Source: an uncultured Myxococcales bacterium | Lineage (GTDB): Bacteria > Myxococcota_A > UBA9042 > DTJE01 | Direction of reading: 5' to 3' | DNA length: 64,000 nt | Assembly: GCA_903857665.1 (NCBI GenBank) | Contig: CAIOFV010000106.1 | Span: 12,027-76,026, forward strand | Part shown: positions 1,253 to 39,679 of the stretch, in pieces | Layout of the letters: each line of letters begins with the position of its first letter | Position numbering within the stretch: position 1 is the stretch's first letter | Notes under the pieces: model-generated | Told to the model about the DNA's origin: nothing | Database searches by the model: none | The model's input: the letters and a program-made list of their open reading frames with translations, nothing else | Position numbers and translations under genes: made by a program

Positions 1253-3643
1253 GTGGACACGATCACGAAACTGAAGGGGCTGTCGTACCTGGGCATGCGC
1301 ACGATCCTGCGGACCGTGAAGTACGCCCTGTACCGCGACCGCCTGGACCGGAAATACGAGGCGAAGCGGTCGCACGCGCGGGCGAAGGTGGGGCGCCTGC
1401 TGGAGACCGTGCCGACGGCCGGCGGCCTGGACGCGAAGTTCCAGGACGCCACGCTGGAGATCCGCTTCCTGGCGCCCGACCTGGCGAGGGTGACCTGGCA
1501 ACCCGGCGTGCTGCCCGTGCCGTACGCCATCGCGCGTACGGAGTGGCCGGCCGTGCAGGTGGACTGGGTCCCGGCCGCGGACGGCGGGGGCCGCCTGTCG
1601 ACGTCGGCACTCGACGTGACGATCGGCGCCGACGGGTCGCTGTCGTTCGCCGAGCCCGGTCAGCCGCCGCTGCGCCGGGACGCGCCTCCGGAGCGCGTCG
1701 GCGATGGCTGGGCGTCGGTGGCCACGCTGGATCCGACCGAGCGCATCCACGGGCTGGGCTTTCGCACGCACGCGTTCGACCTGCGGGGCGGCGAGTACGG
1801 CTTCTGGAACACGGAACCTATGGGCGCCTACGGCCCGGACAGCGACCCGCTGTACGTGAACCTGCCGGTGTGGCTGAGCCTGAGGGACCACGGCAACGTG
1901 CTGGTGTTCTTCGAGAACAGCTTCCGGGGTCGGGCCGCGTTCAAGGACGCGCAGGAGATCCATTTCGAGGGCGGCGCGCTAAGGTACTACGTGATCCCCG
2001 GGCAATTGGCCGGCATGTACGACCGCTTCAGCGAGTTGACCGGCCGCCCGAACCTGCCGCCGCTGTGGGCGCTGGGCTTCCACCAGTGCCGCTGGTCGTA
2101 CCTGGACGAGGCCGAGGTCCGCGAGGTGGCGGACGGGTTCAAGGCCAACGACCTGCCGCTGTCGTCGATCCACCTGGACATCCACTACATGGACGGCCAC
2201 CGGGTGTTCACGGTGGACAAGGCGCGGTTCCCGGACCTGAAGGGACTGTGCGACGACCTGCTGAAGCGGGGCATCCGCATCGTGACGATCCTGGACCCGG
2301 GCGTGAAGAAGGACGAGGGCTTCGACGTGTACAAGGCCGGCAAGGAGGCGGGCGTGTTCTGCACGCTGCCCGACGGCCGACTGTCGCACGCCGACGTATG
2401 GCCCGGCACCTGCGGCTTCCCCGACTTCACCGACCCGAAGTGCCGCGAGTGGTGGGCCGACCTGTACCCGCGCCTGCTGGACCAGGGCGTGACCGGCTTC
2501 TGGCACGACATGAACGAGCCCGCGGCGTTTTCCGCGTGGGGCACCTGCACGCTGCCGCTGGCGACCCGGCATTCGATGGACGGGCGCGGCGGCGACCACC
2601 TGGAAGGCCACAACCTGTACGGGATGCTGGAGGACCGCGCCGGGTTCGAGGCGGTGGCGAAGCACCGCCCCGACCAGCGGCCGTGGCTGCTGTCGCGGTC
2701 GGGCTGGGTCGGCCTGCCGCGGTACGCGTGGCACTGGACCGGCGATTCGGAAAGCAACTGGTGGACGTTGCGGCAGACTCTGCGGATCGCGATGTCGCTG
2801 GGCCTGTCGGGGCTGCCGTACACCGGGTCGGACATCGGCGGGTTCGGCGGGATCATGCCGCAGACCGAATTGATGGTCCGCTGGTTCCAGGCGCAGGCGT
2901 TCCTGCCGTTCTTCCGGATCCACTCGGCGTTCTTCACCAAGCGGCGCGAACCCTGGTGCTTCGGCGACGAAGCCCTGGGGATCCTGCGCGAGGCGCTGAA
3001 GCTGCGGTACGCGATGCTGCCGTACTGGTACACGCTGGCGTGGCAGGCCCACACGACGGGCACGCCGCTGGTGCGTCCGCTGTTCTGGATGGACCCGGCC
3101 GACACCAGCCTGCAGACCGTGGACGACGCGTTCCTGCTGGGCGACGCGCTGCTGGTGGCGCCCGCGATCGAGGAAGGCGTGACGGCGCGCCGGGTCCGGC
3201 TGCCCGCGGGCCGGTGGTTCGCGATGGACGACGAGGAGGCCTTCACCGGCGGCCGCGAGGTGATCGCCAGCGCCCCGTTGACCCGCATCCCGGTGTTCGC
3301 GCGGGCCGGCGCTGTGGTGCCGATGGACGAGGCCGGGCGCACGACGCTGCACCTGTGGGCGCCCGCGGCGGACGGCGCGGCCCCGGGCGGGGCGCTGTAT
3401 TCCGACGAGGGCGACGGCCACGGCCCGTGGCGGCACGAGCGGTACGCGGTGACGCTGGCCGACGGGGCGATCCAGTTGGCCCGCACGGTGGATGGCGACT
3501 ACTCCGAGCCCGCCGGCGGCCTGGTGCTGCGCCTGCGGGGCGCGGCGGCGGCGGGCGCGACCGTAGACGGCATCGACCTCCCGGGCGCAGGCCCGTGGAC
3601 GCTGCCGATCGGGTGGAAGAACGTCCGGATCACGCCCGCCTGA
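1253..3643 (+). CDS. Glycoside hydrolase family 31 (alpha-glucosidase-like)
   Basis: WHDMNEP nucleophile motif, WTGD acid/base, GFHQCRWSY, GSDIGGF and RRERW-like RREPW; GGAGG RBS before the GTG. Confidence 0.93.
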   Translation: MDTITKLKGLSYLGMRTILRTVKYALYRDRLDRKYEAKRSHARAKVGRLLETVPTAGGLDAKFQDATLEIRFLAPDLARVTWQPGVLPVPYAIARTEWPAVQVDWVPAADGGGRLSTSALDVTIGADGSLSFAEPGQPPLRRDAPPERVGDGWASVATLDPTERIHGLGFRTHAFDLRGGEYGFWNTEPMGAYGPDSDPLYVNLPVWLSLRDHGNVLVFFENSFRGRAAFKDAQEIHFEGGALRYYVIPGQLAGMYDRFSELTGRPNLPPLWALGFHQCRWSYLDEAEVREVADGFKANDLPLSSIHLDIHYMDGHRVFTVDKARFPDLKGLCDDLLKRGIRIVTILDPGVKKDEGFDVYKAGKEAGVFCTLPDGRLSHADVWPGTCGFPDFTDPKCREWWADLYPRLLDQGVTGFWHDMNEPAAFSAWGTCTLPLATRHSMDGRGGDHLEGHNLYGMLEDRAGFEAVAKHRPDQRPWLLSRSGWVGLPRYAWHWTGDSESNWWTLRQTLRIAMSLGLSGLPYTGSDIGGFGGIMPQTELMVRWFQAQAFLPFFRIHSAFFTKRREPWCFGDEALGILREALKLRYAMLPYWYTLAWQAHTTGTPLVRPLFWMDPADTSLQTVDDAFLLGDALLVAPAIEEGVTARRVRLPAGRWFAMDDEEAFTGGREVIASAPLTRIPVFARAGAVVPMDEAGRTTLHLWAPAADGAAPGGALYSDEGDGHGPWRHERYAVTLADGAIQLARTVDGDYSEPAGGLVLRLRGAAAAGATVDGIDLPGAGPWTLPIGWKNVRITPA

Positions 3644-7782: not shown

Positions 7783-8415
7783 TCATCCACCGAACCGCAG
7801 CAGCACCCGCGAAGGCGCGCCGTCCCCGCCCAGGATGCGAAGGGGCAGGCAGGCCATCTGGCAGTCCCCCGGCGCCACGTCCGCCAGGTCCAGCCCCTCG
7901 ATCACCCAGATCCCTGCGCCCAGCAGGACGCGGTGCGTTTCGACGCCGTCCACGGGTCGCCCCACCGATAGCGAGTCCACGCCCACCAGGACCACGCCGC
8001 GCTGGACCAGAAAGCGCGCCGCGTCTGCGGTGAGGGCGACGTAGTCCATCGTGAACGGCCCGCGAAGGATCCGCCGGTCCGAATTCGACGTGCGCAGCAG
8101 CAGGCGCTCGCCCGGCCGCGGATCGACCGCGCGCAGGTCATCGACGTCCACGGCATGCGAGCGTGCGATCGCCACCACGCGGGCGGGCCCGATCATCACG
8201 TCCAGCGGGGCCGCGTCGATCGTCGCCCCGCCCGGCACGAAGTGCGCCGGCGCGTCCACGTGGGTGCCCGTGTGGCTGCACAGGCGCAGCGCTGACACCG
8301 TGGCCACGTCGCCCGCTTCGACCGATTCGACGACGTCCCGGCGGAATTCGGGGTCGCCGGGCCACGCGGCCATGCCCGCGTGCAGCGGCATCGAAACGTC
8401 GATCCAGGACGGCAT
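7783..8415 (-). CDS. Cyclase-family metal-dependent hydrolase (kynurenine formamidase-like)
   Basis: WPGDP, HTGTHVDAPAHF, GVDSLS, H.VLLG.GIWVIEGL, GGDGAPSR. ATG at 8415 follows GGAGG. Confidence 0.9.
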   Translation of the reverse strand: MPSWIDVSMPLHAGMAAWPGDPEFRRDVVESVEAGDVATVSALRLCSHTGTHVDAPAHFVPGGATIDAAPLDVMIGPARVVAIARSHAVDVDDLRAVDPRPGERLLLRTSNSDRRILRGPFTMDYVALTADAARFLVQRGVVLVGVDSLSVGRPVDGVETHRVLLGAGIWVIEGLDLADVAPGDCQMACLPLRILGGDGAPSRVLLRFGG

Positions 8416-8515
8416 GCGATCCACCTCCGGGGGATTCCATCTTCCCCAAACGACGCCCGGCGTGCAAGGATCCGGCGACGCGCGGGGGCGCGGGCGGCGC
8501 TCCCAGGAGGGATCG

Positions 8516-9943
8516 ATGACGGACGGTGACCTGAAGGCGGCGTGGCGCGGGCAGTACGCAGACGTCCCGACGACGCTGGCACGCATGGCGGAAACGGGTC
8601 GCGTGGTGACGGCGTTCAACGCCAACATCGACGCGGTGATCAAGGTGCCGGGAACGCGAATCGCCGAACTGGCGGCGGCCACGGGGCTGGACCGGGGGGC
8701 GCTGGACGCCGCCCTGGCCCGGGTGATCCGGACACCGGCGGACCTGGTGCGCGGGCTGATGAGGTGCTTCGCGTCGGGGATCGCCGAGGAGTGGCTGATC
8801 GAGGACCCAGCGGTATACCGGTGGGCCTGCGAACAGGTGGGATGCGACCGGACCCAGATGGGCGGCCAGGCGGGCATCGTGGCCAACGCGATGGCGGTCT
8901 GCGGCGTCCGGGACGTGCTGGTCCATTGCGCCTCGCTGCCGGCCGACCAGGCCCGGCTGTTCCTGGACCTGCCGAACCTGCGATCGACCGGGGCGGACGG
9001 CCGGCTGGTGCAGGCCCGCGGCATCGCCCGGGACGACCCGCCGATGGTCCACTGGATCCTCGAGTTCGACGGCGGCGACGTGATCCCGCTGCCCGGCGGC
9101 GACATCCTTCGGTGCCCGAAGTCGAACCGGTTCATCGCCACCTACGACCCCATGAACCTGGCGCTGCACGTGGATTCGGCGTTCGCGCGACAGGTCGAGG
9201 CGCTGCCGTGCGACGCGATGATCCTGTCGGGCTACCACCTGCTGACCGAAACGCTCCCGGACGGGACACGGGGCACCGATCGCGTGGACGCGTCGATGGA
9301 CGCGGTGCGGGCGTGGCGTCGCGCCAGCCCGGAGTGCCTGGTGCACCTGGAGGTCGCATCGACCCAGGACCGGGTGGTCCGGCGGCACGTGCTGGAAGGG
9401 CCCGCGCGGCAGGTCGATAGCATCGGAATGAACGAGCGCGAGACGATCGACCTGATCGAGCTGCTGGACGACGACGGGCTTGCGGCACTGTGCAACCGCG
9501 AGCCGCGCGCCGACCACCTGTTCCGGGCGGTGCTGAGGGTGTTCCGGCACACGGGCTGCCCGCGCGTCCAGCTGCACATGTACGGCCTGTACGTGACGAT
9601 CCAGCGCAAGGGCTTCCGGGTCGGCCCGATCGCCAACCGGCGCGGCATGCAGACGGCGGCGGTGGTGGCCGCGGGCAAGGCGGGCACGGGGGCGATCGAC
9701 ACGCCGGCCGCGCTGCTGTGGGCCCGCGACCGGGACGTGTCGGACGTGGGCCTCGGCGAACTGAGGCGGCTGGCCGCGTTGCCGGAACTGGGCGGCGCCG
9801 GGGGCAGACTCCTGGCGACAGGCATCCATGAAGGCCCCGACTTCGACGTCATCGCGGTGCCCACGATCCTGGTGGAGCGGCCGGTGACGCTGGTCGGGAT
9901 GGGCGACACGATCTCGTCGGTGTCGCTGGTTGCGGCGCGGTAG
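8516..9943 (+). CDS. ADP-dependent glucokinase/phosphofructokinase family kinase (glucokinase-type residues)
   Basis: FNANIDAV, MGGQAGIVAN, VHWILEF, NRFIATYD, SIGMNERE and the terminal VGMGDTISS with the catalytic Asp. ATG at 8516 follows AGGAGG. Confidence 0.88.
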   Translation: MTDGDLKAAWRGQYADVPTTLARMAETGRVVTAFNANIDAVIKVPGTRIAELAAATGLDRGALDAALARVIRTPADLVRGLMRCFASGIAEEWLIEDPAVYRWACEQVGCDRTQMGGQAGIVANAMAVCGVRDVLVHCASLPADQARLFLDLPNLRSTGADGRLVQARGIARDDPPMVHWILEFDGGDVIPLPGGDILRCPKSNRFIATYDPMNLALHVDSAFARQVEALPCDAMILSGYHLLTETLPDGTRGTDRVDASMDAVRAWRRASPECLVHLEVASTQDRVVRRHVLEGPARQVDSIGMNERETIDLIELLDDDGLAALCNREPRADHLFRAVLRVFRHTGCPRVQLHMYGLYVTIQRKGFRVGPIANRRGMQTAAVVAAGKAGTGAIDTPAALLWARDRDVSDVGLGELRRLAALPELGGAGGRLLATGIHEGPDFDVIAVPTILVERPVTLVGMGDTISSVSLVAAR

Positions 9944-9964
9944 GGCGGGTCGGACATCAAGTGC

Positions 9965-10034
9965 GCCCGAGGCGACTCCGTCTGCGGCGAGAGTTTCCTT
10001 CGGAAACCCATCGCCTGCGCCTACGTGCTCGGGC
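9965..10034 (+). repeat. 70-bp palindromic dispersed repeat, copy 1
   Basis: GCCCGAG...CTCGGGC ends with central hairpin GTTTCC-TTC-GGAAAC; lies between the convergent kinase and tex genes. Confidence 0.9.
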
Positions 10035-10037
10035 GGG

Positions 10038-12221
10038 CTACACCTTGTTGCCCAGCCCCTTCGCCGACAGCGATATCCGGCGCCGCGGCAGGTCCACCGC
10101 CAGCACCCGCACCTTCAGCCGCAGGCCGGGACGCGCGACCTCGGACGGCTGTCGCACGAACCGGTCGGCCAGCTCGCTGACGTGGACCAGCCCATCCTGG
10201 TGCACGCCCACGTCCACGAAGGCGCCGAAGGCCGTCACGTTGGTGACGACGCCTTCCAGTTCCATGCCCGGCTTCAGGTCCTCCAGCGTTCGCACGTCGT
10301 CGCGGAACCGCAGGGCCTCGAACTCGCGCCGCGGGTCGCGCCCGGGCTTCTTCAATTCGGCCAGGATGTCCCGCAGGGTCGGCAGGCCCACGTCGCCGAG
10401 TGCGTAGCGCGCGATGTCGATCTTCTCCACGGCCTCCGGGTGGCCCACCAGCGAGGCCAGCGTCACGCCCAGGTCGCGGGCCATCCGCTCGACCAGGCCG
10501 TACCGCTCGGGATGCACGGCCGAGGCGTCCAGGGGATGCGACCCGCCGCGCACGCGCAGGAAACCCGCCGCCTGCTCGAAGGTCCGGGGGCCCAGCCGCG
10601 GCACCGCCATCAGGTCCTTGCGCGACGTGAAGCCGCCGCGGCGATCCCGCTCGGCCACGATCGCGCCCGCCAGGTTCGGACCGATGCCCGAAACGTAGGC
10701 CAGCAGCGCCGCCGAAGCGGTGTTCACCTCGACGCCGACACCGTTGACGCAGTCCTCGACGACCTCGTCCAGGCGCTTCTTCAGGCGCCCTTCGGCCACG
10801 TCGTGCTGGTACTGCCCGACCCCGATGGACTGCGGGTCCACCTTGACCAGTTCCGCCAGCGGATCCTGCAGGCGGCGGGCGATGCTGATGGCCCCGCGCA
10901 CGGTCAGGTCCAGATCCGGAAACTCCTCGCGGGCGATGTCCGAAGCGCTGTACACGCTGGCGCCGGCCTCGCTGACCGCCACCACCAGCACGTCCTTGGC
11001 CCCGGAGGCCGCCAGCGCGTCCCGCACGAACGCCTCGGTTTCGCGGCCCGCGGTGCCGTTGCCCACGGCCACGGCGTCCGGACGGTGCCGGGCCACGAAC
11101 GCCCTGAAGTCCGCAGTGGCCCGGGCCGCGGACGCGTCGCCGCTGTGCGGATACACCGTCACGTGCCCCTGGAAGGCGCCCCGGGCATCCGCGGCCGCGC
11201 ACTTGCACCCGGTACGCAGCCCCGGATCGACCCCCACCACCGACCGGCCCCCGAAGGGCGGCGCCAGCAGCAGCTCGCGCAGGTTCGCGGCGAACACCTC
11301 CACCGCGTCGCGCTCGGCCCGGTCCGCCACCTCGCCCAGGATCTCGCCGTCCACCGCCGGGCGGATCAGCCGGTCGAACGCGTCCTCGACCGCCGCGACC
11401 AGCTCGCCGGCCCAGGGCGAGCGAGGGTCATGGTTCATCCGCGCCAGGGCCCACTCGATCAGGGGGCCGTCGTCCGCTTCCACCTTCACGCGCAGGATGC
11501 CCTCGGCCTCGCCGCGCCGGACCGCGAGGAACCGGTGCGACGGCAGGCGCGACAGGGCCTCCCGGTATTCGTAGTAGCCCTCGAACTTGGTCGGGCCGGT
11601 CGCCTTGGACTTGATGACGTCGGACCGCAGCGCGCCGCGTTCGCGCAGGGTTTCCCGGACCCGGGCCCGGACATCGGCCCGGTCCGCGGCGGTCTCGGCC
11701 ACGATGTCCCGGGCGCCCGCCAGCGCCGCGTCGATGTCCGCCACGGCCTTCGCCGCGTCGTCCGAGGCGTGGACGTAGGCCAGCGCCTCGTTCCGCGGAT
11801 CGCCGTCCCGGGGCTGGGCCAGGATGCGCGCGGCCAGCGGATCGAGGCCGCGTTCCCGCGCCATGCCCGCGCGGGTGCGCCGCTTCGGCCGGTAGGGCAG
11901 GTACAGGTCCTCCAGCTCGGCCTTCGTGACGCAGGCCTCGATGGCGGCCCGCAGCGCGTCGGTCAACTTCCCCTGCCCGGCGACGGACTCCAGGATCGCA
12001 CGCCGACGCTTGTCCAGGTCCACCAGGGCATCCCGGCGCTCGGACACCGCGCGAATCGCCACCTCGTCCAGCCCGCCGGTCACCTCCTTCCGGTAGCGGG
12101 CCAGGAAGGGCACCGTGGCCCCCTCGTCCAGCAGACGCAGCACCGCGCTGATCGAGGACGTGGGCAGGCGCAGTTCGGCGGCCAGGATCGGCAGCGGATC
12201 GAAGGGGGACGCGTCGGCCAT
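10038..12221 (-). CDS. tex: Tex/YhgF RNA-binding transcriptional accessory protein
   Basis: GATVPFLARYRKE, ELEDLYLPYRPKRRT, GVDPGLRTGCK, QDPLAELVKVDPQSIGVGQYQHDV and a C-terminal S1 domain. Confidence 0.95.
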   Translation of the reverse strand: MADASPFDPLPILAAELRLPTSSISAVLRLLDEGATVPFLARYRKEVTGGLDEVAIRAVSERRDALVDLDKRRRAILESVAGQGKLTDALRAAIEACVTKAELEDLYLPYRPKRRTRAGMARERGLDPLAARILAQPRDGDPRNEALAYVHASDDAAKAVADIDAALAGARDIVAETAADRADVRARVRETLRERGALRSDVIKSKATGPTKFEGYYEYREALSRLPSHRFLAVRRGEAEGILRVKVEADDGPLIEWALARMNHDPRSPWAGELVAAVEDAFDRLIRPAVDGEILGEVADRAERDAVEVFAANLRELLLAPPFGGRSVVGVDPGLRTGCKCAAADARGAFQGHVTVYPHSGDASAARATADFRAFVARHRPDAVAVGNGTAGRETEAFVRDALAASGAKDVLVVAVSEAGASVYSASDIAREEFPDLDLTVRGAISIARRLQDPLAELVKVDPQSIGVGQYQHDVAEGRLKKRLDEVVEDCVNGVGVEVNTASAALLAYVSGIGPNLAGAIVAERDRRGGFTSRKDLMAVPRLGPRTFEQAAGFLRVRGGSHPLDASAVHPERYGLVERMARDLGVTLASLVGHPEAVEKIDIARYALGDVGLPTLRDILAELKKPGRDPRREFEALRFRDDVRTLEDLKPGMELEGVVTNVTAFGAFVDVGVHQDGLVHVSELADRFVRQPSEVARPGLRLKVRVLAVDLPRRRISLSAKGLGNKV

Positions 12222-14428: not shown

Positions 14429-15913
14429 ATGTCGAACCCGTGGAAGGCGTTCATCGACTTCTTCCGGACCGGGCCCGACCGCCCCCCGGCCGACATCGAC
14501 GCCGCGACGATGCGCCGGTCCTACGAGCGCCATCGCTGGAGCGTGTTCCTGTCCGCGACGATCGGGTACGGGCTGTTCTACGTCTGCCGCATCAATTTTT
14601 CGGTCATCAAGAAGCCCATGCTGGACGAGGGCCTTCTGACCGCGACCCAGATGGGCTACATCGGCAGCGCCCTGCTGTTCGGGTACGCCGCCGGAAAGCT
14701 GGTCAACGGGTTCCTGGCGGACCGCAGCAACATCCGCCGGTTCATGTCGTTCGGCCTGCTGGCCTCGGCGGTGCTGAACTTCTTCCTGGGCTTCAACCCG
14801 GGCTTCACGGTGTTCCTGGTCGCGTGGGGCGTCAACGGCTGGCTGCAGTCCACGGGGGCCCCGGGATCCATCGTCACGATGTCCCACTGGTTCAGCCCGA
14901 AGGAGCGAGGCTCCAAGTACGGCATCTGGTGCATCAGCCACAACATCGGCGAGGGCCTGACGTTCGTCCTGACCGCGTTCTTCGTGTCGTCCATGGGCTG
15001 GCACTGGGGCTTCTGGGGCCCCGCGCTGATGTGCATCGTGGCCGCGGCGATCCTGTCGCGCACCCTTGCCGATCGACCGCAGACGCTGGGCCTGCCCCCG
15101 GTCACCGAGTACAAGGACGACATCGCGCCCATGGACAGGGCCGACGCGTCGGTCGGGCACCTCCAGATGGAGGTGCTGCGCAACCCCGCCGTGTGGGCCC
15201 TGGGCCTGTCGTCCGCGATGATGTATGTCGCCCGCTACGGCGTGAACAACTGGGGCGTGCTGGTCCTGCAGGAAGGCAAGGGCCACTCGATGATGGACGC
15301 CGGCACCATCCTCGGGATCTATTCCGTCAGCGGACTGGCGGGTTCGTTCCTGTCGGGGATCATTTCGGACAAGTTCTTCGGTTCGCGGCGCAACCTGCCG
15401 GCCTTCCTGTTCGGGCTGCTGCAGATCGCGTCCCTGACCGCGCTGTTCCTGGCGCCGCCCGGGCACTTCTGGCTGGACGCGATGGCCCTGGCCGTGTTCG
15501 GCTTCGCGATGGGCGTGCTGGTGTCCTTCCTGGGCGGCCTGATGGCGATCGACATCGTGTCCCCGAGGGCGGCAGGCGCCGCGGCCGGCGTGGTCGGGAT
15601 GTTCTCCTACATCGGGGCCGCCCTGCAGGACACCGCCAGCGGCTGGCTGATCGACGTGGGGCGCACGGTCCAGGAAGTCCCGGTCGATGTGGACATGGGC
15701 CGGCTGACGGCCTTCTGCGGCGCGATGGGCACCGACCTGTCGATCCTGGTGGGCCCCGACCGCTGCGCCGGCACGCGCACGATCGCGGTGCAGAAGATCG
15801 ACTATGCCTTCACGGACCCGTTCCTCTTCTGGATCGGCGCGTCGGTGCTGAGCCTGCTGCTGGCGCTGGCGGTCTGGAAGGCGGTCGATCGCGCCCGTGG
15901 CAGGATTGTCTAG
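14429..15913 (+). CDS. MFS transporter, GlpT/UhpT (organophosphate:Pi antiporter) family
   Basis: YVCRINFS, GFLADRSN, HWFSPKERG..YGIW..SHNIG, GIISDKFFGSRR; about 12 TM segments. Confidence 0.88.
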   Translation: MSNPWKAFIDFFRTGPDRPPADIDAATMRRSYERHRWSVFLSATIGYGLFYVCRINFSVIKKPMLDEGLLTATQMGYIGSALLFGYAAGKLVNGFLADRSNIRRFMSFGLLASAVLNFFLGFNPGFTVFLVAWGVNGWLQSTGAPGSIVTMSHWFSPKERGSKYGIWCISHNIGEGLTFVLTAFFVSSMGWHWGFWGPALMCIVAAAILSRTLADRPQTLGLPPVTEYKDDIAPMDRADASVGHLQMEVLRNPAVWALGLSSAMMYVARYGVNNWGVLVLQEGKGHSMMDAGTILGIYSVSGLAGSFLSGIISDKFFGSRRNLPAFLFGLLQIASLTALFLAPPGHFWLDAMALAVFGFAMGVLVSFLGGLMAIDIVSPRAAGAAAGVVGMFSYIGAALQDTASGWLIDVGRTVQEVPVDVDMGRLTAFCGAMGTDLSILVGPDRCAGTRTIAVQKIDYAFTDPFLFWIGASVLSLLLALAVWKAVDRARGRIV

Positions 15914-24918: not shown

Positions 24919-25458
24919 ATGGCGGACAACGCTGCAACGTGCACCTGCGAGGCCGTTCCCGAATCGGAACTGCTGTCGCGGCTGGAAGGGGTGATCGCGG
25001 AATACCGCGAAAAGCCCGGAGCCCTGATCCCGGTGCTCCAGATCGCCCAGGGGATCTTCGGGTACCTTCCCGAGGTCGCGCTGAAGCGGATCGCGGTCGG
25101 GCTGGACAAGCCCTTCAGCGAGGTCGCGGGCGTGGTCAGTTTCTACTCGTTCTTCAGCACGCAGCCCCGCGGACGGCACCTGGTCCGCGTGTGCCTGGGC
25201 ACTGCCTGCTACGTCCGCGGCGGCAAGCAGGTCCTCGACGGCCTGAAGGCGAAGCTGGGCTGCGACGTCGGGCAGACGACCGCCGACCGGAACTTCACGC
25301 TGGAAGTCGCCCGCTGCTTCGGCGCCTGCGGCCTCGCGCCCGCCATGATGATCGACGACGACGTGCACCAGCGGGTCAAGCCTGCGCGCCTGCAGGCGAT
25401 CCTCGACCGCTACGCGGCCGAGCCTGGTGACGTTCAACCCATTCCCGGAGGCGAGTGA
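24919..25458 (+). CDS. hydC: [FeFe]-hydrogenase gamma subunit (NuoE/HydC-like, [2Fe-2S])
   Basis: LIPVLQIAQ, VSFYSFF, VCLGTAC and CFGAC; GGAGGAGG RBS. Confidence 0.92.
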   Translation: MADNAATCTCEAVPESELLSRLEGVIAEYREKPGALIPVLQIAQGIFGYLPEVALKRIAVGLDKPFSEVAGVVSFYSFFSTQPRGRHLVRVCLGTACYVRGGKQVLDGLKAKLGCDVGQTTADRNFTLEVARCFGACGLAPAMMIDDDVHQRVKPARLQAILDRYAAEPGDVQPIPGGE

Positions 25459-25460
25459 CC

Positions 25461-28400
25461 ATGACGACCAGGAAGCGCATCGAATCCGTGACCGACCTCC
25501 AGGCGCTGTGCGAACGTGCGCGCCGCGAGGCCACCACCGCGGGCGCCAGCCCGGACCGTCGCCAGGTCCTGGTGTGTACCGGCGGCGGCTGCATCGCGTC
25601 CGGCTCGCTGGACGTGGTGTCCAGTTTCCGCCGCACGCTGGCCGCCAAGGGCCTGGACGCCCACGTCCAGTTGCTGGAAACCGGCTGCCTGGGACCCTGC
25701 GCGCAGGGCCCGGTCGTGGTCGCGTACCCCGACGGGACCTTCTACCAGCAGGTGAAGCCGGCCGACGTGGACGAAATCGTCGACAGCCACCTGCTGCGCA
25801 ACACCGTGGTCAGCCGCCTGGTCAACCGCCACAGCGGCACCGGCGAACTGGTCCCGCTGATGAAGGATCTCGAGTTCTTCTCGAAGCAGGTCAAGATCGT
25901 GCTGCGGAACTGCGGCATCGTCGACCCGCTGAAGATCGAGGACTACGTCGCGCGTGACGGCTACGCGGCGCTGGCCAAGGCGCTGACACAGATGACCGGC
26001 GATCAGGTCATCGACGAGATCAAGGCGTCCGGCTTGCGCGGCCGCGGCGGCGGCGGCTTCCCGACGGGCCTCAAGTGGGCCTTCGCGAAGAAGTCCCCGA
26101 ACCCCGTGAAGTACGTGCTGTGCAACGCCGACGAAGGCGACCCGGGCGCGTTCATGGACCGCTCGGTGCTGGAAGGCGACCCCCACAGCATCATCGAGGC
26201 CATGGCGATCGCCGGCTACTGCATCGGCGCGACCGAGGGCTTCGTGTACGTCCGCGCCGAGTACCCGCTGGCCATCGAGCGCCTGGGCATCGCGATCCAG
26301 CAGGCTCGTGACGTCGGGCTGCTGGGCAAGAACATCCTGGGCACCGGGTTCGACTTCGACCTGGAGATCCGCAAGGGTTCGGGCGCCTTCGTCTGCGGCG
26401 AGGAAACCGCGCTGATGCGGTCCATCGAAGGCTGCCGCGGCGAGCCGCGCCCCCGTCCGCCCTTCCCGGCGGTCAAGGGCCTCTGGGACAAGCCGTCGCT
26501 GCTGAACAACGTCGAGACGTACGCCAACATCGCGCCGATCCTGCTGAAGGGCTCGGCGTGGTACGCGGCCTACGGCACCGCCAAGTCCAAGGGCACCAAG
26601 GTGTTCGCGCTGGCCGGCGCGGTCCGCAACACGGGCCTCGTGGAAATCCCGATCGGTATGCCGCTGGGCGAGCTGGTGTTCGAGGTCGGCGGCGGCGTCC
26701 CCGGCAACAAGAAGTACAAGGCGGCGCAGATGGGCGGCCCCTCCGGCGGCTGCATCCCCACCGAGCACCTGGGCGTTCCGGTCGATTACGAATCGCTGAT
26801 CGAGCTGGGCGCCATCATCGGGTCCGGCGGCCTCATCGTGATGGACGACGACGCCTGCATGGTGGACGTCGCCCGCTTCTTCCTGGAGTTCTGCCAGGAC
26901 GAGTCCTGCGGCAAGTGCGCGCCGTGCCGCATAGGCACCAAGCGCATGCTGGAGATCCTCGAGCGCATCTGCGACGGCAAGGGCGTCGAAGGCGACGTCG
27001 AGCGCCTGATCGACCTGGGCAACACCATCAAGGACACCGCGCTGTGCGGCCTGGGCCAGACGGCGCCGAACCCGGTCCTGTCCACGATCCGCTACTTCCG
27101 CAGCGAGTACGACGCGCACATCCGGGAAAAGAAGTGCCCGGCCGGCGCCTGCACCGCGCTGGTCCGCGCCCCGTGCCAGAACGCCTGCCCCGCGGGCGTG
27201 GACGTGCCCGGCTTCGTGTCGCTGGTCGGCGAAGGCCGCTACTCGGACGCCATGAAGTGGCATCGGGACCGCAACCCGCTGGCATCGATCTGCGCACGTG
27301 TCTGCTTCCACCCCTGCGAGTCCAAGTGCCGCCGCGTCACGCTGGACACCCCGGTGGCCATCCGCGGCATCAAGCGTTTCATGGTGGACCAACCGGTGGA
27401 CATGGAACTGCCCGAAATGCGCCCCGTCGCGGCCAATGCCAAGCGCAAGGTCGCCATCATCGGCGGTGGGCCCGCGGGCCTGTCGGCGGCATACTTCCTG
27501 GCGCGCCTGGGCTACACCCCGACGGTCTTCGAGGCGGAAAGCAAGGCCGGCGGCATGCTGGTCCAGACCATCCCGGCGTACCGCCTGCCCCGCGAGCGCC
27601 TGGAAGCGGAAATCAAGCTCATTGAGTCGATGGGCGTGACGATCCTGACGGGCAAGCGCCTGGGTCGCGACTTCACCCTGAACGGTCTGCGCGGCGAAGG
27701 CTACAAGGCCGTGTTCCTGGGCGTCGGCGCCATGAAGGGCAGCACCCTGGGCCTGCCGAATGAAACGGCGGACGGCGTGGCCGAGGCCCTTTCCTTCCTG
27801 AAGGCCGCGAACATGGGCACCGGCGTCACCGTGGGTCGTCGCGTCGCCGTCATCGGCGGCGGCAACGCGGCCATCGACGCGGCCCGCACCGCCAAGCGCC
27901 TGGGCGCCGAGGAAGTCACGATCGTCTACCGCCGCCGCCGCAACGAAATGCCGGCATGGGAAGTCGAGATCGACGAGGCCCTGACGGAAGGCGTGATCCT
28001 GGAAACCCTGGTGGCGCCCGTCGAAGTGGTCGTGGAAAACGGCCGCGTGATCGGCCTGGCCTGCCAGCGCATGGAACTGGGTTCCTACGACAAGTCCGGC
28101 CGCCGGCGTCCCGTCCCGATCAAGGGCGCCCTGTTCACGATTCCCGTCGATCAGATCGTCGCCGCCGTCGGCCAGTCGGTCGAGTCTGCCGGCCTGTTCG
28201 GGGACGTTCCCGTCACGCTGAACCGTGACGGCACCGTGAAGGCGGATCCGCTGACCGGCCGCACGTCGGTCGAGTGGCTGTTCGCGGGTGGCGACGCCAC
28301 CGTCGGACCGTCCTCGGTCGTCGAGGCCATCGCCGCGGGCGAGAGGGCCGCGGCGGGCATCGACGAGGCCTTGACCGGCGCCAACCACGCCTTCTGGCGG

Positions 28401-28595
28401 GAGCATCGGGTTGTCGACACGGCCTTCGATCCCGACGCCGATCCGGTGTACCTGCAGCGGGCGCACGAGTGCCTGCGGCCGGTGGCCGAGCGCACGGGTT
28501 CCTTCGCCGAGGTCGAGCTGACCTGGAGCGAGACCGTGGCCCGGGGCGAGGCGCGGCGCTGCCTGCGCTGCGACTACCGGGAGTCGTGCAACTGA
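25461..28595 (+). CDS. hydB: [FeFe]-hydrogenase beta subunit (NuoF/HydB) fused to a GltD/NfnB-like FAD/NADPH oxidoreductase
   Basis: VCTGGGC..GCLGPC, GLRGRGGGGFPTG, NADEGDPGAFMDR, GAFVCGEE and SCGKCAPCR, then PCQNACP/CARVCFHPCESKC, GGGPAG and GGGNAAID...YRRR. Confidence 0.92.
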   Translation: MTTRKRIESVTDLQALCERARREATTAGASPDRRQVLVCTGGGCIASGSLDVVSSFRRTLAAKGLDAHVQLLETGCLGPCAQGPVVVAYPDGTFYQQVKPADVDEIVDSHLLRNTVVSRLVNRHSGTGELVPLMKDLEFFSKQVKIVLRNCGIVDPLKIEDYVARDGYAALAKALTQMTGDQVIDEIKASGLRGRGGGGFPTGLKWAFAKKSPNPVKYVLCNADEGDPGAFMDRSVLEGDPHSIIEAMAIAGYCIGATEGFVYVRAEYPLAIERLGIAIQQARDVGLLGKNILGTGFDFDLEIRKGSGAFVCGEETALMRSIEGCRGEPRPRPPFPAVKGLWDKPSLLNNVETYANIAPILLKGSAWYAAYGTAKSKGTKVFALAGAVRNTGLVEIPIGMPLGELVFEVGGGVPGNKKYKAAQMGGPSGGCIPTEHLGVPVDYESLIELGAIIGSGGLIVMDDDACMVDVARFFLEFCQDESCGKCAPCRIGTKRMLEILERICDGKGVEGDVERLIDLGNTIKDTALCGLGQTAPNPVLSTIRYFRSEYDAHIREKKCPAGACTALVRAPCQNACPAGVDVPGFVSLVGEGRYSDAMKWHRDRNPLASICARVCFHPCESKCRRVTLDTPVAIRGIKRFMVDQPVDMELPEMRPVAANAKRKVAIIGGGPAGLSAAYFLARLGYTPTVFEAESKAGGMLVQTIPAYRLPRERLEAEIKLIESMGVTILTGKRLGRDFTLNGLRGEGYKAVFLGVGAMKGSTLGLPNETADGVAEALSFLKAANMGTGVTVGRRVAVIGGGNAAIDAARTAKRLGAEEVTIVYRRRRNEMPAWEVEIDEALTEGVILETLVAPVEVVVENGRVIGLACQRMELGSYDKSGRRRPVPIKGALFTIPVDQIVAAVGQSVESAGLFGDVPVTLNRDGTVKADPLTGRTSVEWLFAGGDATVGPSSVVEAIAAGERAAAGIDEALTGANHAFWREHRVVDTAFDPDADPVYLQRAHECLRPVAERTGSFAEVELTWSETVARGEARRCLRCDYRESCN

Positions 28596-28645
28596 ACCGC
28601 GCCGGCCATCGGCATTCGGCCGACGGCCGTGAGGAGGAACGACCC

Positions 28646-30445
28646 ATGGTGAACCTGACGATCAACGGCTCCCCGGTCCAGGCGGCTGACGGCGCGACCG
28701 TCCTGACCGCAGCGAAGGCGGCCGGCATCAACATCCCGACCCTGTGCTACCTGGAAGACGTCCAGGCCATCGGCGCCTGTCGCGTCTGCATGGTCGAGGT
28801 CGAGGGCGCCCGCACGCCGGTGCCGGCGTGCGTTGCCCCCGCCACCGAAGGCATGAAGGTTCGTACCAACAGCCAGCGTGTCCGCGACGCCCGTCGCACG
28901 GTCATGGAACTGCTGATGTCCGACCACGCCGGCGACTGCAAGACGTGCGATCGCAACGACGATTGCGAGTTCCAGGCCCTGGCGCGCGACCTGGGGATCC
29001 GCCAGATCTCGTGGCCGGGCGACATCAACCCGCCTCACCTGGACACATCGACGGCGGCCCTGGTCCGCGATACCGGCAAGTGCGTGCTGTGCCGCCGCTG
29101 CGTCACCGTGTGCAACGGCACGCAGGCCGTGGGCGCCCTGTTCCCGCAGTCCCGCGGCTTCAAGACGGTCGTGGGCCCGGCGTTCGGCCGCGACCTCGAC
29201 ACGGTCACCTGCGTGCAGTGCGGCCAGTGCTCGGCCGTCTGCCCCGTGGGCGCCATCAGCGAGCGCGACGACACCGACAAGGTGTGGGCCGCCCTCGAGG
29301 ACCCGGTCAAGTTCGTCGTCGTGCAGACGGCGCCTGCCATCCGCGCGGCGCTGGGCGAGGAGTTCGGCTATCCGGCCGGCACGCTGGTCACCGGCAAGAT
29401 GACGGCGGCCCTGCGCCGCCTGGGCATCAACGCCGTGTTCGACACCAACTTCACGGCCGACCTCACGATCCTCGAGGAAGGGACCGAACTGCTGATGCGG
29501 CTGAAGGCCGCGCTGGCGCCCGATCCGCACGGCCACGCAGAAGGTCACCATGCCCACGGCCCCCTGCCGCTGGCGACGTCCTGCTGCCCCGCGTGGATCA
29601 AGAACTGCGAGCACTTCCACCCGGACTTCCTGCCGAACCTGTCCACCTGCAAGTCGCCCCAGCAGATGTTCGGCGCGGCGGCCAAGACCTACTACTCGCG
29701 CACGATCGCCAAGCACCCGTCCGACATCTTCGTGGTGTCGATCATGCCGTGCACCGCCAAGAAGTTCGAAGCCGAGCGGCCCGAGATGGAGTCGTCCTGG
29801 CAGCGGGACGTGGACGTGGTGCTGACCACCCGCGAGCTGGCCCGGATGATCAAGGAAGCCGGCATCGACTTCAGAAACCTGCCCGATGAGCAGATGGACC
29901 AGCCGATGGGCATGTCCACCGGCGCCGCGGACATCTTCGCCAACACCGGCGGCGTGATGGAAGCCGCCTTGCGCACCGCGTGGGAAATCGTCACCGGCCA
30001 CCAGTTGCCGTTCGACGGCCTGCGCGTGACCCCGATCGAGGGCATGGAGGGCGTCAAGGAGGCCTCCGTGACCTTCAGCGGCTGCACGGACGACTGGAAG
30101 TTCCTGGAAGGCGTCACGGCGAAGGTCGCCGTCGCCCACGGTCTGGCCAACGCCAACAAGGTCGTGGACAGCATCCGCAAGGGCGAGGCCTCGTACCACT
30201 TCATCGAGTTCATGTCCTGTCCCGGCGGCTGCATCGGCGGGGGCGGGCAGCCCCGGCTGACCACCGACACGGTCCGCAAGGCGCGTACCGACGCCATCCG
30301 GCGCGAGGACCAGGGCAAGGGCATGCGCAAGTCCCATGAAAACCCGCAGGTGCGGGCGGTCTACGAGGCGTTCTTCAAGACGCCGAACTCGGACCTGTCG
30401 CACCGATTCCTTCACACCCATTACTTCGGGCGAGACCGGGTGTGA
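28646..30445 (+). CDS. hydA: [FeFe]-hydrogenase catalytic subunit (group A)
   Basis: H-cluster motifs TSCCPAW, MPCTAKKFE and EFMSCPGGCIGGGGQP; N-terminal [2Fe-2S], His-ligated and 2x[4Fe-4S] motifs. Confidence 0.96.
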   Translation: MVNLTINGSPVQAADGATVLTAAKAAGINIPTLCYLEDVQAIGACRVCMVEVEGARTPVPACVAPATEGMKVRTNSQRVRDARRTVMELLMSDHAGDCKTCDRNDDCEFQALARDLGIRQISWPGDINPPHLDTSTAALVRDTGKCVLCRRCVTVCNGTQAVGALFPQSRGFKTVVGPAFGRDLDTVTCVQCGQCSAVCPVGAISERDDTDKVWAALEDPVKFVVVQTAPAIRAALGEEFGYPAGTLVTGKMTAALRRLGINAVFDTNFTADLTILEEGTELLMRLKAALAPDPHGHAEGHHAHGPLPLATSCCPAWIKNCEHFHPDFLPNLSTCKSPQQMFGAAAKTYYSRTIAKHPSDIFVVSIMPCTAKKFEAERPEMESSWQRDVDVVLTTRELARMIKEAGIDFRNLPDEQMDQPMGMSTGAADIFANTGGVMEAALRTAWEIVTGHQLPFDGLRVTPIEGMEGVKEASVTFSGCTDDWKFLEGVTAKVAVAHGLANANKVVDSIRKGEASYHFIEFMSCPGGCIGGGGQPRLTTDTVRKARTDAIRREDQGKGMRKSHENPQVRAVYEAFFKTPNSDLSHRFLHTHYFGRDRV

Positions 30446-30514
30446 CGCGGGCGTACCCGGCGTCCAGCGACCGTACCTCCTCGCTGGGCGCCGGGCACCA
30501 CTACTGTTGGAGTG

Positions 30515-30584
30515 GCCCGAGGCGACTCCGGCTGCGGCAAGAGATTGCAAACGCAATCCCTCGCCTCCGCCTTCGTGCTCGGGA
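30515..30584 (+). repeat. 70-bp palindromic dispersed repeat, copy 2
   Basis: GCCCGAG...CTCGGGA ends with central GATTGC-AAAC-GCAATC. Confidence 0.9.
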
Positions 30585-30595
30585 TGAGTGGAGTG

Positions 30596-30619
30596 GCCCG
30601 AGGCGACTTTGGCTCGGGC
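30596..30619 (+). repeat. Internally deleted 24-bp mini copy of the 70-bp repeat
   Basis: GCCCGAG-GCGACTTTGG-CTCGGGC. The 20-mer TGGAGTGGCCCGAGGCGACT is duplicated at 30508 and 30589. Confidence 0.8.
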
Positions 30620-30664
30620 GGATCCGGTATGCTAGCCCGCGTGCCCGGGTCGCAGGAGTATCCG

Positions 30665-32707
30665 ATGGCCGTCCTCTGGACGATCCCCGAACGGTGCCGA
30701 CGCTGCTACACCTGCGTCCGGGACTGTCCCGCGAAGGCCATCCAGGTCGTAGGGGGCCAGGCCCGCGTCGTGCCCGAGCGCTGCATCGCCTGCGGCAACT
30801 GCGTGAAAGTGTGCGCCCAGGGCGCCAAGCGCGTCCGGGACGACATCGAGGAAGTGCAGGCCCTGCTGGCCGGCGACAAGCCGGTGTTCGCCTGCGTGGC
30901 GCCGTCCTACCCGGCGGCCTTCGACACGGTGGAACCGGGACGCGTCATCCAGGCGATCCGCGCGCTGGGCTTCGCCGAGGTGTGGGAGGTCGCCTTCGGG
31001 GCGGAACTGGTGGCCCCGGCCTACCTGCGCCTGTTCAACGAGGCCCGGAGGACCGGGAAGCCGGTGATCGCCACGCCCTGCCCTGCCGTCGTGACCTACA
31101 TCGAAAAGTACCTGCCCGAACTGCATGACTACCTCGCGCCGGTAGTGTCGCCCAAGATCGCGGTGGCGCGGGCGATCCACCAGAAGCACAACGGCAACGT
31201 CCGCGTGGTCTTCATGGGACCGTGCGTGGCCAAGAAGCAGCACCTCCACACCGAATCGAACAGCGCGCTGGACGCGGTGCTGACGTTCGACGAACTGAAC
31301 CGCATGTTCATCGCGGCGGGCGTGGACCCCGCCGATCAGCCCTTGAGCAGCTTCGACGGGCCGCGCGCCCACATCGGGCGGACCTTCCCCATCAGCGGCG
31401 GGCTGCTGAAGACCGCCGGCATGGGCGCGGACCTGCTGGACGGCGAGATCGTCGGCACCGAGGGCAAGGACCGGGTGCTGTCCACGCTGAAGGACCTGGC
31501 CGCCGGCCGCTCCCATGCGCTGTTCTATGACGTGCTGTTCTGCGAGGGCTGCATCGACGGCCCGATGATGCTGAACAACCTCAGCGTACTGGCCCGCAAG
31601 GAACTGCTGGTGCGTCACATCAACGACCGCGCGCGCTTCGTGTCGCATCGCGAGCTGGCCGAGTCCCTGGGCGAGTTCGAGGGCCTGGACCTGTCGCGGA
31701 CGTTCGAGCGGGAAAACCTGAGCCTGCCCCAGCCTCCCGAGGAGGACATCGTCCGGACGCTGGAGCGCATGCGCAAGGCGCTGCCCCAGGACCAGCTGAA
31801 CTGCGGCGCCTGCGGCTACCCGACGTGCCGGGAAAAGGCGATCGCCGTGTGCCAGGGGCTGGCCGAACCGGCGATGTGCCTGCCCTTCCTGGTCGACGAA
31901 CTGGAGCAGGTCGTCACGGACCTGCGCCAGTCGCACGAGGAGCTGGCGACCACACAGAAGCAGTTGCTGCGATCCGAGCGGCTGGCCTCGATGGGCCAGC
32001 TGTCGGCGGGCATCGCCCACGAGCTGAACAACCCGCTGGGCACGATCCTCCTCTACAGCCACATGCTGATGCGCGAGGTCCGGGACGACCGCGGCAAGGA
32101 GGATCTGCAGCTGATCGTCAGCGAGGCCACCCGCTGCAAGGACATCGTCCGCGGCCTGCTGGACTTCGCCCGCAAGTCCCGGGTGTCCAAGGCGCCGGCC
32201 GACCTGCGCGAGGTGATCGAGGAGGTCGCGGGGATCGCCCGGCCTCGCGCCGGCGAGATGCGCGTCGAGGTGACCACGTCGGTGGCCGACGACATGCCGG
32301 TGCTGATGATCGACCGGGTCCAGTTGCGGCAGGCCCTGGTCAACATCGCCATGAACGCGGTGGACAGCATGCCCGGCGGTGGCACCCTGCACCTGGCCGC
32401 GCGCATGTCCGATTCGGGCGACGACGTGCGGATCGAGATCACGGACACCGGCTGCGGCATCCCGCCCGAAAACCTCAGCCGCCTGTTCACGCCGTTCTTC
32501 ACCACCAAGGCGATGGGCAAGGGCACCGGCCTGGGCCTGGCGATCACCTACGGCGTGATCAAGATGCATTCGGGCGACATCACGGTCGACAGCGAGGTCG
32601 GCAAGGGCACGTCCTTCACGATCCGCCTCCCAGTGCGGACCGCGGAGGCGGTCGGGGACGATGGAAGCGCGCGGGAGTACCGCGTCGAGGAACAGTATTT
32701 CCGGTAG
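30665..32707 (+). CDS. Sensory-type [FeFe]-hydrogenase domain fused to a histidine kinase (group C1-like)
   Basis: 2x[4Fe-4S] ([23 protein letters not shown]), divergent H-cluster motifs TPCP / GPCVAKK / FCEGCIDGP, FeS domain [11 protein letters not shown]-box AHELNNPLG and an HATPase domain. Confidence 0.88.
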
Positions 32708-38698: not shown

Positions 38699-39679
38699 GT
38701 GGCGAAGCCGGGAGTCCAGGGACCGTTCGTGGGTGTGGACCTGGGGGGTACCAACATCGTCGCCGGGCTGATGGACGCCGAGGGGCGCATCCTGGCCCGA
38801 TCGAAGAAGAAGACGGGCGCCGACACGTCCCCCGACGCCGTGGTCCGGCGCATCCTGGCGACGGTGACGGAGATCCTGGCCGAGGCCCGCATCGCACCCG
38901 ACCAGCTGGCGGCCATCGGGGTGGGCGCACCCGGGCCCGTGGACCCGGGCCGCGGGATGGTGCTGAAGGCGCCGAACCTGGGATGGAGCGACGTGCCCCT
39001 CGCCGACATCCTGGCCGCCCAGTTGAAGGTGCCCGCCTTCGTGGACAACGACGTGAACGTCGGGACCTGGGCGGAATACGTGGTGGGCGCGGGCCAGGGC
39101 TGCCGGGACATGATGGGGGTGTTCGTCGGGACGGGCATCGGCGCCGGCCTGGTGCTGGACGGACGCCTGTACCACGGCCACTTCCGCACGGCCGGCGAGA
39201 TCGGGCACACCTGGATCCAGGCCGACGCGCCGCTGGGCCGTCGCACCACCGAGAACCTGGCCAGCCGCACGGCGATCGGGTTCCAGCTGCACCAGCTGGC
39301 CCTGGCCAGCCACTCGACCCTGCTGACCCAGTTCGCCGACGAGGGCGACCTGCGCAACCTGAGGTCCAAGGCGCTGGCGAAGTCCCTGGAGGCCGGCGAC
39401 GAGCTGACGCGCATCGTGGTCCAGCAGGCCGCGACCTACGTGGGCATCGCCATCGCGAACTCGGTCACGCTGCTGAGCCTGCCCTGCGTGGTGCTGGGCG
39501 GCGGCCTGACCGAGGCCCTGGGCCGCACGTTCGTCACCTGGGTACGCGCCGCGTTCGTGGGTGCGGTGTTCCCGCCGGAACTGGCCGAGTGCCGGATCGT
39601 CGCGGGGAAGCTGGGCGATGACGCGGGGATGGTCGGCGCGGCGATGGTGGCGCGGGATCGACTGGTTGCGGGGACCTGA
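38699..39679 (+). CDS. ROK-family sugar kinase lacking the CxCG Zn motif
   Basis: GVDLGGT, DNDVN, GTGIGAG, GEIGH, VLGGG; no CxCGxxGC after EIGH. Confidence 0.88.
   Translation: MAKPGVQGPFVGVDLGGTNIVAGLMDAEGRILARSKKKTGADTSPDAVVRRILATVTEILAEARIAPDQLAAIGVGAPGPVDPGRGMVLKAPNLGWSDVPLADILAAQLKVPAFVDNDVNVGTWAEYVVGAGQGCRDMMGVFVGTGIGAGLVLDGRLYHGHFRTAGEIGHTWIQADAPLGRRTTENLASRTAIGFQLHQLALASHSTLLTQFADEGDLRNLRSKALAKSLEAGDELTRIVVQQAATYVGIAIANSVTLLSLPCVVLGGGLTEALGRTFVTWVRAAFVGAVFPPELAECRIVAGKLGDDAGMVGAAMVARDRLVAGT

Follow-up and report, generated by a model that had tools for sequence, protein, structure and literature searches.

A predicted glucose-specific ADP-dependent glucokinase in a Myxococcota genome belongs to an all-bacterial clade in the family of ADP-dependent sugar kinases

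The kinase gene and the integrity of its locus

We have examined a gene for an ADP-dependent sugar kinase that lies within a 64,000-nt stretch of DNA (hereafter, the window) from a metagenome-assembled genome (MAG) of an uncultured Myxococcales bacterium (contig CAIOFV010000106.1). The gene occupies positions 8516-9943 of the forward strand and encodes a protein of 475 amino acids that was assigned to Pfam family PF04587 by profile search and by an AlphaFold2 model compared with Foldseek, and that we predict to be a glucose-specific ADP-dependent glucokinase (ADP-GK). On the same strand, the frame is open over 8051-9943. Since the window has a G+C content of ∼70%, long spurious frames are common in it, and we placed the start of the kinase at the ATG at 8516 because a Shine-Dalgarno-like AGGAGG, found by direct reading of the sequence, lies 5 nt upstream (8505-8510, forward strand) and because the N-termini of homologues (MTDGELKA...) align from this methionine. 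Divergent from the kinase, and separated from it by a 100-bp intergenic gap, lies a putative cyclase gene on the reverse strand (7783-8415; PF04199, 96.5 bits). A scan of positions 8300-10150 for promoters and terminators found none. One copy of a hairpin repeat (9965-10034) was located 22 nt past the kinase stop codon, in the gap where the kinase gene and tex converge; the fold of 9944-10040 reached -41 kcal/mol, which is not better than that of shuffled sequences (z -0.5).

The kinase gene is present in one copy in the 5.04-Mb assembly, and its G+C content at third codon positions (GC3) is 0.926, compared with 0.896-0.955 in 13 other genes of the window. The gene order cysK-cysS-kinase-tex is repeated in three congeneric MAGs that come from separate assemblies. 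A chimeric contig, which a preliminary description of this DNA had named as a possible source of error, is thus contradicted at the position of the kinase.

Family membership and fold

The profile of PF04587 (ADP_PFK_GK) matched the protein with 225.4 bits (E = 1.5e-66; gathering cut-off, 27 bits) over profile positions 2-429 of 430. An AlphaFold2 model built from an alignment of 17 sequences (pLDDT 92.2, pTM 0.91) showed the two-domain architecture of these enzymes, with a large Rossmann-like α/β/α domain and a small lid. When this model was compared with the PDB using Foldseek, the best 22 matches were all ADP-dependent kinases, with TM-scores of up to 0.86, a value obtained both for the ternary complex of the Pyrococcus furiosus ADP-GK (1ua4) and for the Methanocaldococcus jannaschii structure 5od2; the following matches were ribokinase and adenosine kinase folds with TM-scores <0.4. 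The protein is therefore a member of the family of ADP-dependent sugar kinases, far beyond chance, as the preliminary description had claimed from motifs that are all present in it.

Catalytic and specificity residues

For the residue map, the kinase and its homologues were aligned to PDB reference sequences and numbered according to AncMsPFK, a reconstructed ancestor of the ADP-dependent phosphofructokinase (ADP-PFK)/GK enzymes of Methanosarcinales (Munoz, Castro-Fernandez, Guixe 2020, PMC7948494). Residue identities at the numbered AncMsPFK positions all agreed with the alignment. All the motifs that follow are encoded on the forward strand. The sugar-binding NxNxD motif appears as NANID (N35, N37 and D39; 8618-8632), corresponds to N32/N34/D36 of AncMsPFK and is invariant in 120 homologues, while the alignment also recovered the GGQ motif that contacts the sugar ring (G116, G117 and Q118; 8861-8869). 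In AncMsPFK, Mg-ADP is held by the HXE and DXXE motifs (PMC7948494). The first is found in the window protein as HLE (H277 and E279, corresponding to H280/E282; 9344-9352) and the second as NERE (N306 and E309, corresponding to D310/E313; 9431-9442), that is, in the glucokinase-type form with Asn. R206 and D471 of AncMsPFK, the latter inside the GXGD motif, are essential, and the R206A variant is inactive (PMC7948494). Both residues are retained, as R205 (in the segment R205...D211; 9128-9148) and as D464, the predicted catalytic base, in GMGD (residues 461-464; 9896-9907). Residues of the nucleotide site (H354, A389, V453 and V460) are conserved too.

The positions that distinguish glucokinases from phosphofructokinases were then compared. 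Only ADP-GKs and bifunctional enzymes conserve E90 of AncMsPFK (PMC7948494), and its equivalent in the window protein is E92, inside GIAEE (residues 88-92; 8777-8791); ancMT (E72) and the Thermococcus litoralis glucokinase (TlGK) also carry Glu, and PhPFK carries Ala. On the other hand, conservation of K179, N181 and R212 is limited to specific ADP-PFKs and bifunctional enzymes (EC 2.7.1.146), and in AncMsPFK the Km for fructose 6-phosphate (F6P) rises ∼1000-fold in K179A and ∼200-fold in N181A and R212A (PMC7948494). All three are substituted in the window protein. In M177-V178-H179 (9044-9052), Met replaces Lys and His replaces Asn, where TlGK has Leu and His, the latter also reported for position 181 of TlGK (PMC7948494); and D211, the last residue of NRFIATYD (204-211), takes the place of R212. 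Overall, E92, M177, H179, D211 and N306 stand against E, L, H, D and N in TlGK. The specificity residues quoted in the preliminary description (E92, H179 within VHWILEF at residues 178-184, and D211) were correctly read, and its glucokinase-like rather than phosphofructokinase-like assignment is borne out by the three replacements and by the literature on them. E92, H179, D211, R205 and D464 are unchanged in 120 out of the 120 top homologues, and 68 columns are invariant over 17 members of the clade. As judged from the alignment, the specificity positions are in the TlGK state and not in the PFK state.

An all-bacterial clade and an old acquisition

Two trees of the family were calculated, one with FastTree (134 rows) and one with IQ-TREE under LG+C20 (73 rows). 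Both placed the window protein inside a clade with support 100 and outside the clade with the K/N/R signature (support 98), which groups all the characterised PFK and bifunctional enzymes, including PhPFK, MjPFK/GK, ancMT and AncMsPFK. Many clades of both trees carry the E/H/D signature of glucokinases. The clade of the window protein joined only weakly (81) a group with a Heimdallarchaeota protein among its members. We conclude that the kinase is glucokinase-like by signature, falls among the branches that bear the glucokinase signature and has no orthologue among the characterised enzymes. A separate clade with support 100, formed by 14 representative PF04587 clusters (including P0143, P0146, P0153 and P0170), showed a signature of its own, with H-V/T-D instead of N-x-N-x-D, Gln instead of Glu, Thr instead of the Gln of GGQ and Asn instead of Asp211; this clade may be the eukaryotic ADPGK branch.

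The distribution of the family was examined at several scales. Among 1.84 billion representatives at 50% identity the family accounted for only 570 clusters at E ≤ 1e-3, a number that fell to 127 at E ≤ 1e-30. A search of 5.8 billion proteins gave >1000 matches, of which the top 120 were 49-98% identical to the window protein over their full length; sources among the matches were Myxococcota, Ancylomarina, Marinifilum, Labilibaculum, Salinivirgaceae, Spirochaetaceae and Alphaproteobacteria, and the NCBI name that the matches already bear is 'ADP-dependent glucokinase/phosphofructokinase'. In contigs sampled at one genome per species, relatives are encoded in at least 469 stretches. The best 80 of them are all bacterial and include Myxococcales MAGs from lakes, Marinifilaceae isolates, Ignavibacteria and Melioribacteraceae, Rhodothermaceae, gut Alphaproteobacteria (CAG:495, UMGS63), Planctomycetota and Spirochaetaceae. 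The clade of the window protein is all-bacterial and spans at least six phyla (Bacteroidota, Ignavibacteria, Alphaproteobacteria, Planctomycetota, Spirochaetes and one family of Myxococcota). Inside Myxococcota, the kinase was found in 8 of the 301 sampled genomes, all from the family of the window genome; it is present in 9 out of 20 genomes of this family and in none of the 21 genomes from the remainder of the class. The kinase is, in consequence, rare per genome and not exceptional for Bacteria. The statement in the preliminary description that such enzymes are uncommon in bacteria holds as a frequency; the picture of an isolated archaeal stray does not, since the window protein sits in an all-bacterial clade with relatives in at least 469 species-level genomes.

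In a further IQ-TREE analysis, the copies from genera g1, g3 and g5 of the Myxococcota family formed a single clade (100/100) with a weak link (93/76) to an alphaproteobacterial sub-clade. An archaeal donor as the proximate source was considered and rejected: the nearest relatives are bacterial, the Myxococcota sub-clade falls, weakly, with Alphaproteobacteria, and the Heimdallarchaeota clade is sister to the whole bacterial clade with weak support (81). The acquisition in the Myxococcota family is old, because the GC3 of the gene matches that of its neighbours and synteny agrees across congeneric MAGs, in line with what the preliminary description had proposed from codon style. The kinase of one genome of genus g4 (G012, loci L020/L007) grouped with a Planctomycetota-like sequence (100/98), apart from the other copies of the family, which suggests a second, independent acquisition in that genus. 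The G+C content of the kinase loci was 57% in G012, 49.5% in another genome (G005) and ∼70% in the window, a very wide range for one family.

An ancestral link to a GH31 gene

The window contains, 4.9 kb from the kinase at present, an alpha-glucosidase-like gene of glycoside hydrolase family 31 (GH31; 1253-3643, forward strand; Glyco_hydro_31, 375 bits), whose product has the MalA alpha-glucosidase as its top NCBIfam match, under the cut-off of that model. In the sister genus g5 the gene order is GH31-kinase-prmA-lmbE-MFS, the last gene encoding a transporter of the major facilitator superfamily (MFS). In one g5 genome (G013, L021:5521-9362) the TGA of the GH31 gene overlaps the ATG of the kinase (ATGA), and in another (G007, L019) the two genes are separated by a 4-nt gap. 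This arrangement is classic translational coupling. The window keeps the outer genes of the g5 block, with a hypothetical gene, cysK, cysS and the cyclase gene inserted before the kinase and tex after it. In the ancestral order the GH31 gene lay immediately upstream of the kinase, and a glucokinase role agrees with a position directly behind the gene for a glucose-releasing enzyme. Since homologues of GH31 are common across the class whether the kinase is present or absent, co-occurrence is uninformative and only adjacency counts. In the window, the MFS transporter (14429-15913) is next to prmA-lmbE, is conserved in the syntenic block of the kinase in g5 and resembles organophosphate:phosphate antiporters in type (PgtP/UhpC/GlpT-like, with every score under its cut-off).

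Metabolic context of the genome

The genome encodes three PFK-A enzymes, one of which passes the NCBIfam subfamily cut-off for ATP-PFK while two pass that for pyrophosphate-dependent PFK (PPi-PFK); with three such enzymes present, a further phosphofructokinase is not needed. A pyruvate phosphate dikinase (PPDK) equivalog was also found (1259 bits against a cut-off of 843). PPDK converts AMP, PPi and phosphoenolpyruvate into ATP, pyruvate and phosphate. The two PPi-PFK genes and the PPDK gene (G000:C84:26755-27741, G000:C105:67301-68251 and G000:C162:33497-36220) constitute a toolkit for PPi-based glycolysis.

A search of the genome for a Glk-type glucokinase gave no hit. There are two ROK kinases. 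One is ScrK-like, and the other, encoded in the window (38699-39679, forward strand; PF00480, 206 bits), is a possible ATP-dependent glucokinase and a possible functional duplicate of the ADP-dependent enzyme; it scored 198 bits with TIGR00744 ('ROK family glucokinase'), below the cut-off of 260.

An [FeFe]-hydrogenase with a NuoF-like partner is encoded in the window. The energy-limited anaerobe envisaged in the preliminary description is only partly supported: the hydrogenase, the two PPi-PFKs and PPDK agree with it, but a haem-copper oxidase subunit I is encoded in the genome as well. The hydrogenase region (25455-32707) encodes three unusual hydrogenase-related proteins, namely a NuoF-like HydB fused to a GltD/pyridine-nucleotide-disulphide oxidoreductase module (1046 amino acids), a HydA [FeFe]-hydrogenase (Fe_hyd_lg_C, 319 bits) and a candidate H2-sensing histidine kinase in which a hydrogenase-like domain is joined to HisKA/HATPase_c.

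Weighing the function of the kinase

Taken together, the residue pattern shared with TlGK, the presence of PFK-A enzymes in the genome and the GH31 gene that abuts the kinase in g5 lead us to propose that the protein is a functional, glucose-specific ADP-dependent glucokinase (EC 2.7.1.147), a prediction from sequence to which we assign a probability of roughly 0.7. Several observations weigh against this assignment. The closest PDB sequence is the PFK-type ancestor AncMsPFK (6c8z, 1.9e-51), and the T. litoralis ADP-GK comes next with only 1e-35. The NCBIfam ADP-GK equivalogs NF010642 and NF010641, models derived from archaeal enzymes, were both hit far below their cut-offs (193.9 against 387 and 148.5 against 554, respectively), as was the ADP-PFK equivalog TIGR02045 (184.8 against 408). 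Identity between the bacterial clade and any characterised glucokinase is only 25-26%, the clade is not sister to the characterised Thermococcales enzymes, in trees whose deep branches are weak, and no assayed bacterial member of the family was found in the literature. At the sugar site, Q244 is His in the window protein (H241), the only difference from TlGK at this site. Regarding the neighbourhood, direct adjacency of GH31 and kinase is confined to the sister genus, and a tblastn comparison of 13 window neighbours with 80 bacterial loci found no shared context outside Myxococcota (in Ancylomarina longa, for instance, the kinase is a lone gene flanked by clpB and citrate lyase genes), so that context bears on function only within the family of the window genome. 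Finally, 7 of the 8 relatives examined that carry the ADP-dependent kinase also encode ROK kinases, and thus the ADP-dependent enzyme need not be the main or only glucokinase. The idea that it is the sole glucokinase was dropped on this ground, together with the lack of a clear anticorrelation between the presence of ROK kinases and that of the ADP-dependent kinase.

Some of these points would also fit other functions. The distance from characterised glucokinases and the failure to reach any equivalog cut-off, together with His at position 244 and with T209/Y210, which are unlike the residues of TlGK, could indicate an active kinase of the family with another main sugar (e.g. mannose, glucosamine, fructose or 1,5-anhydroglucitol) or another preferred donor (GDP, CDP or ATP). 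We consider this the likeliest of the alternatives, yet unlikely, given that every glucose contact reported for TlGK or MjPFK/GK except Q244 is identical in the window protein, that the residues of the nucleotide site and both Mg-ADP motifs are retained, and that the ancestral partner is an alpha-glucosidase-like GH31 enzyme, the product of which is glucose. A bifunctional GK/PFK would explain why AncMsPFK is the top PDB sequence match and why TIGR02045 scores nearly as high as the glucokinase model (185 against 194 bits), and the Glu at E92 is found in bifunctional enzymes as well. Nevertheless, such a bifunctional activity appears improbable: the residues restricted to PFK and bifunctional enzymes are all replaced (Met stands at K179, His at N181 and Asp at R212), D211 places a negative charge where the phosphate of F6P would approach, the protein lies outside the PFK-type clade, and three PFK-A enzymes are already encoded in the genome.

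It could also be argued that the gene is degenerating or no longer active, or that it entered the MAG from an archaeal or eukaryotic contaminant through an error of assembly or binning, since the genome is a MAG with an estimated contamination of 3.7%. However, the frame is intact, the catalytic motifs are complete and 68 columns are invariant across 17 clade members; GC3 equals that of the neighbouring genes, the gene order is the same in three other congeneric MAGs, and the closest relatives are all bacterial. For practical purposes, this explanation is refuted.

Proposed mechanism and implications

As a glucose-specific ADP-GK, the protein would catalyse the conversion of glucose and ADP into glucose 6-phosphate and AMP; the sugar substrate, the phosphoryl donor and the physiological role given here are those that we infer. 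Within a ribokinase-like two-domain fold, D464 of the GXGD motif would act as the catalytic base, R205 would steady the transferred phosphate, Mg-ADP would be bound by H277/E279 and N306/E309, and glucose would be contacted by N35, N37, D39, E92, G116-Q118 and H179. In our proposal, the ancestor of the Myxococcota family would have gained the kinase long ago from another bacterium, the gene standing then directly behind that of the GH31 alpha-glucosidase, and its likely role would be to phosphorylate glucose freed from alpha-glucosides. PPDK could recycle the AMP produced by ADP-GK, which, in combination with the PPi-PFKs, would result in an ATP-sparing glycolysis.

A broader and more tentative proposal is that the whole bacterial branch consists of glucose-specific ADP-GKs that, in mesophilic fermenters, are paired with PPi-PFK and with the AMP-consuming PPDK in an ATP-sparing glycolysis. 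We hold this generalisation to be possible, with the balance of probability somewhat against it. If it were true, the last step would directly regenerate ATP from the AMP formed at the first, and the pathway would be a bacterial counterpart, biochemically undescribed, of the modified Embden-Meyerhof pathway of archaea. The presence in one genome of two PPi-PFKs, PPDK and an [FeFe]-hydrogenase makes ATP-sparing glycolysis testable, and the translational coupling to GH31 in the sister genus provides a neighbourhood clue to the substrate.

Two 2025 reviews, on glycolysis and on glucose kinases, list the ADP-dependent glucokinase for Archaea and animals only. Databases nevertheless contain hundreds of bacterial members that form a coherent clade, for which the residue argument would narrow the public name 'glucokinase/phosphofructokinase' to glucokinase across the clade. 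The kind of enzyme is unchanged and the clade is already annotated, hence the value of this finding is incremental.

Comparison with known ADP-dependent kinases

The ADP-GKs of Thermococcales (T. litoralis, 1gc5/4b8s; P. furiosus, 1ua4; P. horikoshii, 1l2l/5o0j) belong to the same Pfam family as the window protein, superpose on its model with TM-scores of 0.84-0.86 and share with it NxNxD, GGQ, HXE, GXGD and the catalytic Arg, as well as the specificity Glu, a hydrophobic residue instead of Lys, the His, the Asp and the NxxE form of the second Mg-ADP motif. They differ from it in their low identity (25-26%), in their position in the trees, where they are not sister to it, and in having Gln where the window protein has H241. 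Their hosts are hyperthermophilic archaea, in contrast to the mesophilic bacterium that carries the window protein. AncMsPFK (6c8z, 6xio), the closest PDB match by sequence and by Foldseek, has in common with the window protein E90 and the catalytic and nucleotide motifs, but it is effectively a PFK, its activity on glucose being weak, and its K179/N181/R212 correspond to Met, His and Asp in the window protein. The animal ADPGK (mouse, 5ccf) shares family and fold with the window protein and is an ADP-dependent enzyme specific for glucose, yet it is a far weaker match (E = 6e-08 by sequence, TM-score 0.60, 18% identity). The nearest counterparts are the uncharacterised proteins of the bacterial clade (Ancylomarina longa, Marinifilum, Labilibaculum euxinus and MAGs of Myxococcota, Ignavibacteria and gut Alphaproteobacteria), which are 46-87% identical to the window protein over their full length and share with it the clade with support 100 and the specificity residues. 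Unlike them, the window copy belongs to the Myxococcota sub-clade (100/100), has M177 and H241 instead of Leu and Gln, and descends from an ancestral linkage to GH31 that is not seen in Bacteroidota.

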